Source: Candidatus Heimdallarchaeum endolithica (GTDB lineage Archaea > Asgardarchaeota > Heimdallarchaeia > Heimdallarchaeales > Heimdallarchaeaceae). Taken from it: a DNA stretch of 64,000 bases. The stretch covers positions 2,240,001 to 2,304,000 of the forward strand of contig CP084167.1 of assembly GCA_021513715.1 (NCBI GenBank), written 5' to 3'. Position 1 is the stretch's first letter. Each line of letters opens with the position of its first letter. The notes beneath the pieces are model-generated. The model made no database searches, was not told the DNA's origin, and saw only the letters and a program-made list of their open reading frames with translations. Of the stretch, positions 54,719 to 55,870 are shown in pieces. A program made the translations under genes and the position numbers.

Positions 54719-55870
54719 TTATAACTCCTTTTTTCCTTTTTCAAAGAAGTAAAGTTTTCTTGGCTTAAAGCGGGTCCATTTCTCTTTAGTCAGAGGAACT
54801 GTCGCAATTATTACAGCTCTTTCATTTTCTGGTTTATCTAAAATGGAAATCCTAAGATCTCTATCTTTTGCTACTATCATTGATTGGTGAGGTGGCTTCC
54901 TTTCTACATAGTACAAACTATTATATCCTGAATGATAAGCAAAAAGCGAATCTCCATCAGATAACAAGAAATTCAATCCTCCGTATTCTGATAGTTTGTT
55001 AGCAATATCTTCAATTGTTGATATTTTTTTATTATTTGTGGCATTTCTTCCTATTTTTTTCAACTCTTCAAGTATTATACAGAAAGCCAATTCAGAATCT
55101 GTTTGACCATCAGGATAATATTTAGTTAATTCAAAATTCCTTTTTAGCATCATATAGTTTAGAGCACCATTATGCGCAAAAACCCAATTTTTATCAAAAA
55201 GTTGTTTTTGAAAAGGATGAGTATTTTCAACTTTTGATCTGCCATAAGATACTTTTTTACGTAAAAAACTAAATTTTTAGTTTGTGGAGTTATTAGACCA
55301 ATAACAACCTGAAACACATTTGTTTAAATAAAACATACAAAATATTTGGGAGTGTCACAACTTTTCAGCTATCTTTATATATTCAATTCTCATTTATCTA
55401 GTGTCTTGAGCTATATGCTTAAAGACGTAGGTTTCATTCCTACGACACCCGGTCTTCCCTTTGGGAGTTATGAGTTCCCGGGATAAGGAGATGAACCCCT
55501 TAGAGAACTTAATTGAGACTGTGTCTTTCATGTTCTCTTAAGCCAGTCTTCATAACTTTCGCTAAGTTTGTTGGTTGGTTGGGGAGAGTCCTGAAGAAAT
55601 TACGTAAAATTTCAACTCATGGATGGGGTTATGCTTGGTTAAATCCACAGGATAGAGAATGGAATATCGTTAAAGAACCGATAAAAGCTGAAAGTAGCAT
55701 TATAGCAGAACAACTAATTGAGAAAAAAGATGTTTTTAGGGGAACAATGTTTCTCTCTCACATTAGATTTGCGACACATGTGGATTGCTTCGTGAGTGTT
55801 TTCTGAAAATACTAAAAGAAAAAGAAATTTCTGTTGTAGGATAGCAAGATACACCTAGAAGTTCACACAT
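54719..55870 (-). pseudogene. class II glutamine amidotransferase (YafJ/EgtC-like), disrupted by an insertion and an internal inversion
   Basis: MCELLG...NPH (55870-55778, minus) + HGWG...SHIRFATH (55618-55780, plus) + GRSKVENTHPF...WVFAHNG...TDSE (55243-54719, minus) rejoin in frame to 258 aa. Confidence 0.9.
55246..55617 (+). mobile_element. non-coding CATG-inserted element with structured RNA-like interior
   Basis: CAT at 55243-45 and 55618-20; left end AAGATACTTTTTTACGTAA resembles the end at 14060; inverted TTTTACGTAA/TTACGTAAAA near both ends. Confidence 0.8.

Follow-up and report, generated by a model that had tools for sequence, protein, structure and literature searches.

Precise short inversions of DNA are a product of phase-variation invertases of the Hin/Gin type, and the TnpX/TndX transposons belong with the large serine recombinases. 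Symmetric cores enable a serine integrase to give inversions as well as deletions (PMC3556126). IS607 transposases exchange strands across a 2-bp GG and ask little else of their sites (PMC6188088), and how one element end avoids reacting with a random target is a question that was left open (PMC4058570). Inverted ends are typical of DDE-associated tnpB elements, and not of serine-associated ones (PMC10691335).

Here we describe a locus of the archaeon Candidatus Heimdallarchaeum endolithica, whose genome is one closed contig of 3,326,783 bp with 31% GC. The window that was analysed is a stretch of 64,000 nucleotides of this contig, and its coordinates are used throughout unless a genome or contig is named. 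Within it, an amidotransferase gene is interrupted by a mobile element and partly inverted. The locus appears to be a natural staged record of a one-ended recombination reaction, with alleles from before, between and after its steps, and the element represents a type of tnpB element, with an AT core, inverted ends and no transposase, of which no published description was found in the literature searched.

The amidotransferase gene and its pieces

The gene has the N-terminal cysteine and the profile match of a class II glutamine amidotransferase (GATase_4, YafJ/EgtC-like). It lies in three pieces on two strands, within an accessory block of about 2 kb:

53980-55950: accessory block, holding the amidotransferase gene and a 200-aa ORF (54042-54644) without clear family; absent from the syntenic site in H. 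aukensis, present in other strains
54719-55245, minus strand: C-terminal piece of the gene, Pfam GATase_4 positions 84-252
55618-55780, plus strand, opposite to the rest: middle piece, 163 bp including both CATG sites, Pfam GATase_4 positions 35-82; when reversed, a 100% match to intact alleles
55777-55780: reciprocal joint, the left half of site 1 fused to the left half of site 2, with a single AT core and zero bases gained or lost
55778-55870, minus strand: N-terminal piece, codons 1-31, identical in the intact alleles L304 and L305

An earlier note, made from the sequence alone, had already placed the three pieces at these positions and strands and had bounded the middle by CATG at 55618-21 and 55777-80. 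Re-location of the pieces, the Pfam profile, a homolog of 49% identity and the intact alleles all agree with it. The middle and C-terminal pieces match consecutive positions of the profile, and the rebuilt 258-aa ORF aligns with the homolog free of gaps at both joints. The note's recipe for restoring the gene, to flip the middle and delete 55246-55617, does give an open frame, but one of 259 aa with an extra Asp; the 258-aa product requires removal of 375 bp, that is, the element and one AT core. The left junction of the element is CATA, not CATG.

H. aukensis does not have the gene, and is therefore unusable as a sister allele for this locus. The block starts about 150 bp from a tRNA-Trp gene (53729-53828, minus strand, anticodon CCA) with an apparent intron of about 29 nt, which was found by Rfam and missed by ARAGORN in bacterial mode.

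The element and its AT-core family

The interrupting element is a MITE. Its parts, and a longer member of the same end family in the window, are as follows:

55244-55620: non-coding MITE, 375 bp plus one duplicated AT, with AT cores at 55244-45 and 55619-20; 18 full copies in the genome and further ones in H. aukensis
55243-55264, plus strand: end A (left), CATA and then TTTTACGTAA at 55255-64; the end that probably recombined with the second CATG
55529-55532: CATG inside the MITE; it is precisely here that other copies are cut, with 93-bp end-B fragments remaining
55600-55621, minus strand: end B (right), an inverted copy of the subterminal motif at 55600-09, plus CATG; probably where the element was first joined to site 1, with the same joint in alleles L311-L313
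14057-15849, plus strand: longer member of the end family (T2), carrying tnpB only

Read inward, both ends have the design N-AT-N, six bases, TTTT and a subfamily motif, and inverted AT-N-TTTT ends are found in every subfamily. This design is common to the MITE, to the four transposase-less tnpB families of the genome, some of which are just 26% identical in protein, and to a second MITE; relatives in other genera of the family Heimdallarchaeaceae share it. Removing a copy together with one AT restores long host ORFs, and in filled and empty sites compared as pairs (targets T-AT-C, T-AT-G and C-AT-T) AT alone is repeated, which excludes duplication of the 4-bp CATG or of a 3-bp CAT/ATG. The duplication is thus of 2 bp. 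The core is AT in 35/35 rebuilt sites, and a preference for CATG is seen in 27 of the 35 empty sites, around which no wider consensus or palindromic wider target was found.

No recombinase gene lies in or beside any copy, those of relatives included, and none adjoins the tnpB relatives, nor does a transposase, in 29 loci and the Thorarchaeota-type contigs. One copy (L011:1880-2256, genome 925508-925884) interrupts the start of the genome's sole Y1 tnpA, in a classical IS605 element, at a CATC target. This Y1 gene was considered as a partner of the MITE and rejected: it belongs to another element and is a victim of the insertion.

At 55370-55617, on the plus strand, the MITE has a TATA-like box and, after it, about 210 nt whose GC-rich stems reach end B. 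This stretch could be a stand-alone guide-RNA scaffold for TnpB, but folding is weak (z -1.8 and -1.3, the former for this scaffold reading) and an Rfam search with the MITE gave no match. A scan of genomes with a 16-nt pattern gave chance matches only. Elsewhere in the window (47448-48392, minus strand) is a copy of an abundant IS5/IS4-like DDE element with about 30 copies, the inverted ends of which contain CATG (GCATGTCC) and are unlike the AT-core family in design.

Alleles and the order of events

Further alleles were collected on contigs from JGI and ENA metagenomes, the intact gene being reached by protein search. Independent assemblies show three states: the intact gene, the inverted one, and what looks like an intermediate, in which the element sits at the first CATG but nothing is inverted. 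The gene is element-free and un-inverted in L304, L305, L310 and L316, the kind of allele that the earlier note had proposed to look for; L304 and L305 are identical to the reconstruction at 774 of 777 nucleotides, with CATG at both ancestral sites. The inverted allele of the window recurs in two independent short-read assemblies (L314 and L315) at about 99% identity, each with SNPs of its own (13-18), and segregates in several samples alongside intact alleles. The locus is a loss-of-function polymorphism in an accessory gene.

These recurrences bear on the concern, raised in the earlier note, that the junctions might stem from misassembly, for instance after a CATG-cutting library step. The assembly of this genome is nanopore-based and its libraries were PCR-barcoded (PMC8813620), and a library or assembly artefact, or a CATG restriction enzyme whose cuts were religated, might be suspected. 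The presence of the inverted allele in two other assemblies with their own SNPs makes misassembly very unlikely, no CATG cutter is among the published library kits (PMC8813620), partner sites elsewhere are sometimes GATG or CATT, and CATG depletion (0.81) is similar to that of other palindromes. An artefact is largely refuted already, and we give it hardly any credence.

In L311, L312 and L313, end B meets the middle at the very joint that the window has, yet the middle continues into the C-terminus. The intermediate and window alleles differ by one flip of 534 bp between the core of end A and the second CATG:

55245-55778: segment, consisting of element and middle, that would have flipped in one step, from the difference between L311-L313 and L314, L315 and the window

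Because a single flip of element and middle separates L311-L313 from the window, end A, the left junction, most likely acted; and because the end-B joint is already present in these un-inverted alleles, the right junction is probably the original insertion joint. The earlier note had assigned the exchange to the right junction, which is probably wrong. Cryptic element ends at the two target sites were looked for and none was found; as neither site resembles an element end, the partner is taken to be a bare CATG.

The same chemistry could have run in the other order, with insertion at the second CATG and an exchange of the right end with the first CATG that flipped only the 159-163 bp of the middle, in which case the intermediate contigs would be chimeras or stem from another insertion event. 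Either order yields one and the same product sequence. The intermediate contigs start within the repeat and carry the same SNP haplotype as intact alleles: middle position 79 is G in L311-L313 and some intact alleles and T in inverted ones, and 79G in an intermediate requires one recombination or homoplasy, or a chimeric assembly. Against this order, the same intermediate is present in three separate assemblies, the MITE of L313 and that of the inverted alleles L314 and L315 agree at all but 2 of 306 sites, and about 83 bp separate the junction from the SNP, less than one read. We regard this order as unlikely, and hold with good confidence that L311-L313 are insertions at the first CATG without inversion, a real intermediate rather than an assembly chimera; that an intermediate allele exists is likely.

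The account that we consider probable as a whole is insertion at the first CATG and subsequent exchange of an element end with a bare CATG. A non-autonomous element of the AT-core family would have inserted into the first CATG of the accessory gene, and a recombinase acting in trans would have brought together an end of the element, which is probably end A, and a bare CATG lying about 540 bp from it. Strand exchange inside the AT would then have flipped element and middle with nothing lost; AT being its own reverse complement, the exchange is able to run in the inverting orientation. The inverted product and its joints without loss are seen directly; a single step and serine-type chemistry are what we infer.

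The gene is simply inactivated. The suggestion of the earlier note that the event is recent or reversible holds in so far as the inverted allele segregates beside intact ones, but flipping it back would yield a gene that is still interrupted, and an on/off switch is not shown. Both element-bearing alleles are interrupted, so a flip cannot turn the gene on. A restoring orientation, long inverted repeats and a dedicated invertase, which would define an invertible phase switch, are absent, and the sites of the inverted segment share CATG only.

Other rearrangements at AT cores

An inversion adjoins 4 of the 18 MITE copies, and two of these inversions are confirmed against H. aukensis. Beside MITE 1840192, about 795 bp have been inverted with no bases lost; beside MITE 1601379, 621 bp are inverted and 150 bp missing, all three sites being AT-centred; the H. 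aukensis alleles of both are un-inverted. At 699140, a 75-bp inversion fits by paralogy only. End A would be the reactive end in all four cases. Inversions are also found with no element beside them, namely a 634-bp CATG-to-CATG inversion in a copper ATPase gene, un-inverted in H. aukensis, and an internal inversion at AT cores in an IS6 copy. An independent JGI contig carries a tnpB element beside a 143-bp inversion whose sites are CATG and CATT. The AT-core rule of the joints at the MITE locus is thus followed by further events in the genome and in sister genomes, which, together with the AT-only duplication, supports the earlier note's proposal that an element end took part in a conservative exchange, without loss, at a symmetric AT core.

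A one-ended reaction would account for these other local AT-core inversions and deletions as well, and the element-free inversions would reflect later clean excision, or reactions between bare sites. Truncation points of repeats fall at CAT/ATG in 15 of 24 cases against a 20% background (p ~6e-6), the 24 points having been picked by hand in a selection that was not blind; control motifs are not enriched. An unbiased genome-wide ORF-rescue scan gave CATG counts not enriched over those of other palindromes. These scans are noisy, and a codon-scored version missed the amidotransferase locus among its top matches; only homology-checked inversions were kept, and the cases rest on those homology checks.

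Inversions beside 4 of 18 copies also bear on a reading in which two copies in opposite orientation sat at the two CATG sites, the DNA between them was turned round by homologous recombination, and clean excision of one copy followed. Beyond that recombination, this needs only normal insertion and clean excision, and hybrid elements with ends from two subfamilies exist, so copies do recombine. It takes three steps, however, and by chance about 1% of copies should have another one within 1 kb, against the 4/18 observed with adjacent inversions (p 3e-5, assuming independent insertions). No allele with two element copies is among the nine seen, and the cuts at the internal CATG of the MITE are left unexplained. 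We think this reading rather improbable, and prefer exchange between one element end and a bare site.

Several other rearranged places were noted. A 1.26-kb piece of a surface-protein gene (L292:5193-6448, genome ~3166200-3167450) is inverted relative to paralogs; comparison of this inversion at ~3.166 Mb with H. aukensis is confounded by paralogs. A block at L250:6800-10600 (genome 138800-142600), absent from H. aukensis, is a patchwork of IS6 pieces and a tnpB fragment with CATG at both fragment edges, and also holds pieces resembling the 3.0-Mb region. In L043 (H. aukensis 2601097-2604247), a MITE fragment is fused at an internal AT to the end of a tnpB element; its flanks lie 16 kb apart on opposite strands in the H. 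endolithica genome, which, on sequence comparison, suggests a large inversion. A tnpB element of H. aukensis (L068:3239-3934) has its last 700 bp tandemly duplicated.

Candidate enzymes

Reciprocal joints of the kind seen, with a symmetric 2-bp core and nothing lost, are in keeping with serine-recombinase chemistry, and the enzyme, none being encoded inside the element, would be a low-specificity recombinase that rearranges DNA at AT/CATG. In the closed genome, no IS607 TnpA and no transposase of the IS630, DDE_Tnp_4 (ISL2/Harbinger) or IS110 type was found: PF13358, PF13359 and PF02371 have no match, and NF033518 (IS607 TnpA) is below cut-off in both this genome and H. aukensis. One tyrosine recombinase is present, and one Y1 gene, the one interrupted by the MITE.

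An ISL2/IS630-like DDE transposase that duplicates 2 bp (AT), or else a Cas1 from Asgard archaea, might be thought responsible, the inversions arising by aberrant one-ended transposition and microhomology joining at AT. tnpB genes with ISL2, IS630, IS1031 or aCas1 partners have been described (PMC13565253, PMC10691335). DDE elements would account for the inverted ends and for the short duplication within a palindromic target, and such ends are typical of DDE-linked tnpB elements, which lends this reading some weight. DDE breaks usually leave a footprint. A single AT is kept in every reciprocal joint checked, the genome has no match to PF13358 or PF13359, resident DDE elements have different ends, and AT-core ends were not found near Cas1 matches; we judge DDE or Cas1 activity very unlikely.

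For the serine chemistry that we favour, the best candidates are two stand-alone short serine recombinases in the chromosome, of ~240-250 aa, with intact catalytic motifs. They have the catalytic and recombinase domains and no zinc ribbon, and a structural model aligns over its full length with large serine integrases, the zinc-ribbon region of the latter missing. Relatives occur in 28 of 29 genomes of the family, and a search of 16 other genomes of the order gave none; this co-occurrence in one family is the sole tie of the two enzymes to the element ends. One of them (L012:3732-5358, genome 316731-318357) lies behind two small unknown genes, is syntenic and is ~75% identical across the family; in its G005 ortholog the catalytic motif is seemingly missing. 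One of the two may, as a fixed syntenic host gene, have another role. A serine recombinase near an element end at genome 314437 was considered as element-encoded and rejected, as it lies outside the element, and extra recombinase paralogs in relatives are not flanked by AT-core ends.

As a tentative proposal, a host-encoded, vertically kept short serine recombinase of Heimdallarchaeaceae may be the transposase of several unrelated tnpB families and MITEs, and might also invert and delete chromosomal DNA between ends and bare sites owing to its symmetric AT core and CATG-only target, as a domesticated genome-scrambling enzyme. The locus offers a testable substrate for an orphan, strongly conserved recombinase, in Asgard archaea the reaction would be a common source of exact inversions within genes, and a compact recombinase needing little beyond CATG would be of technical interest.

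Comparison with known systems

Unlike the segments flipped by Hin/Gin invertases, the segment here has neither long inverted repeats nor an invertase next to it, and the gene stays broken whichever way the element-bearing allele is turned. The tnpB-only and protein-less copies, which would move in trans, resemble IS200/IS605 and IS1341 elements and their non-autonomous derivatives, but the AT-core elements have no GC-rich subterminal hairpins, no Y1 TnpA partner and no target confined to the 5′ side of the left end; AT is duplicated and the preference lies on both sides. The DEDD recombinase of IS110/IS1111 (PF02371) is absent.

DDE-associated tnpB elements (partners IS630, ISL2, IS1031) share the inverted ends and the short duplication in a palindromic target. 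Inverted repeats with a 2-bp duplication, as in IS630/ISL2, are present, although a 2-bp duplication and a 2-bp core look the same in sequence alone; a cognate DDE transposase was not found, and lossless reciprocal and element-free inversions are not the usual product of such elements.

Closer are the large serine recombinases (A118 and Bxb1 integrases), with a 2-bp core, conservative joints, and inversions and deletions at symmetric cores (PMC3556126), to whose catalytic and recombinase domains the fold of the candidate enzymes is predicted to be alike. They differ in that the candidates are chromosomal, of ~240 aa and without the zinc-ribbon/coiled-coil part, in that the AT-core target is only CATG, and in that symmetric cores were engineered there and are natural here.

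With IS607 (serine TnpA and TnpB), the family shares tnpB cargo in its long members, though not in the MITE, exchange over a 2-bp identical core without longer duplication, minimal target specificity, and, in several subfamilies, short phased repeats near the ends. The AT-core family has a symmetric AT core and inverted ends where IS607 has a GG core and no terminal inverted repeats, and a serine TnpA with an N-terminal MerR-type HTH is absent from every copy and from the genome; true IS607 elements in relatives (L265-L277) have unrelated ends and no T-clade tnpB. By its core, its ends and its lack of a transposase the element stands outside IS607, while in its behaviour it is like an IS607/serine-recombinase element.
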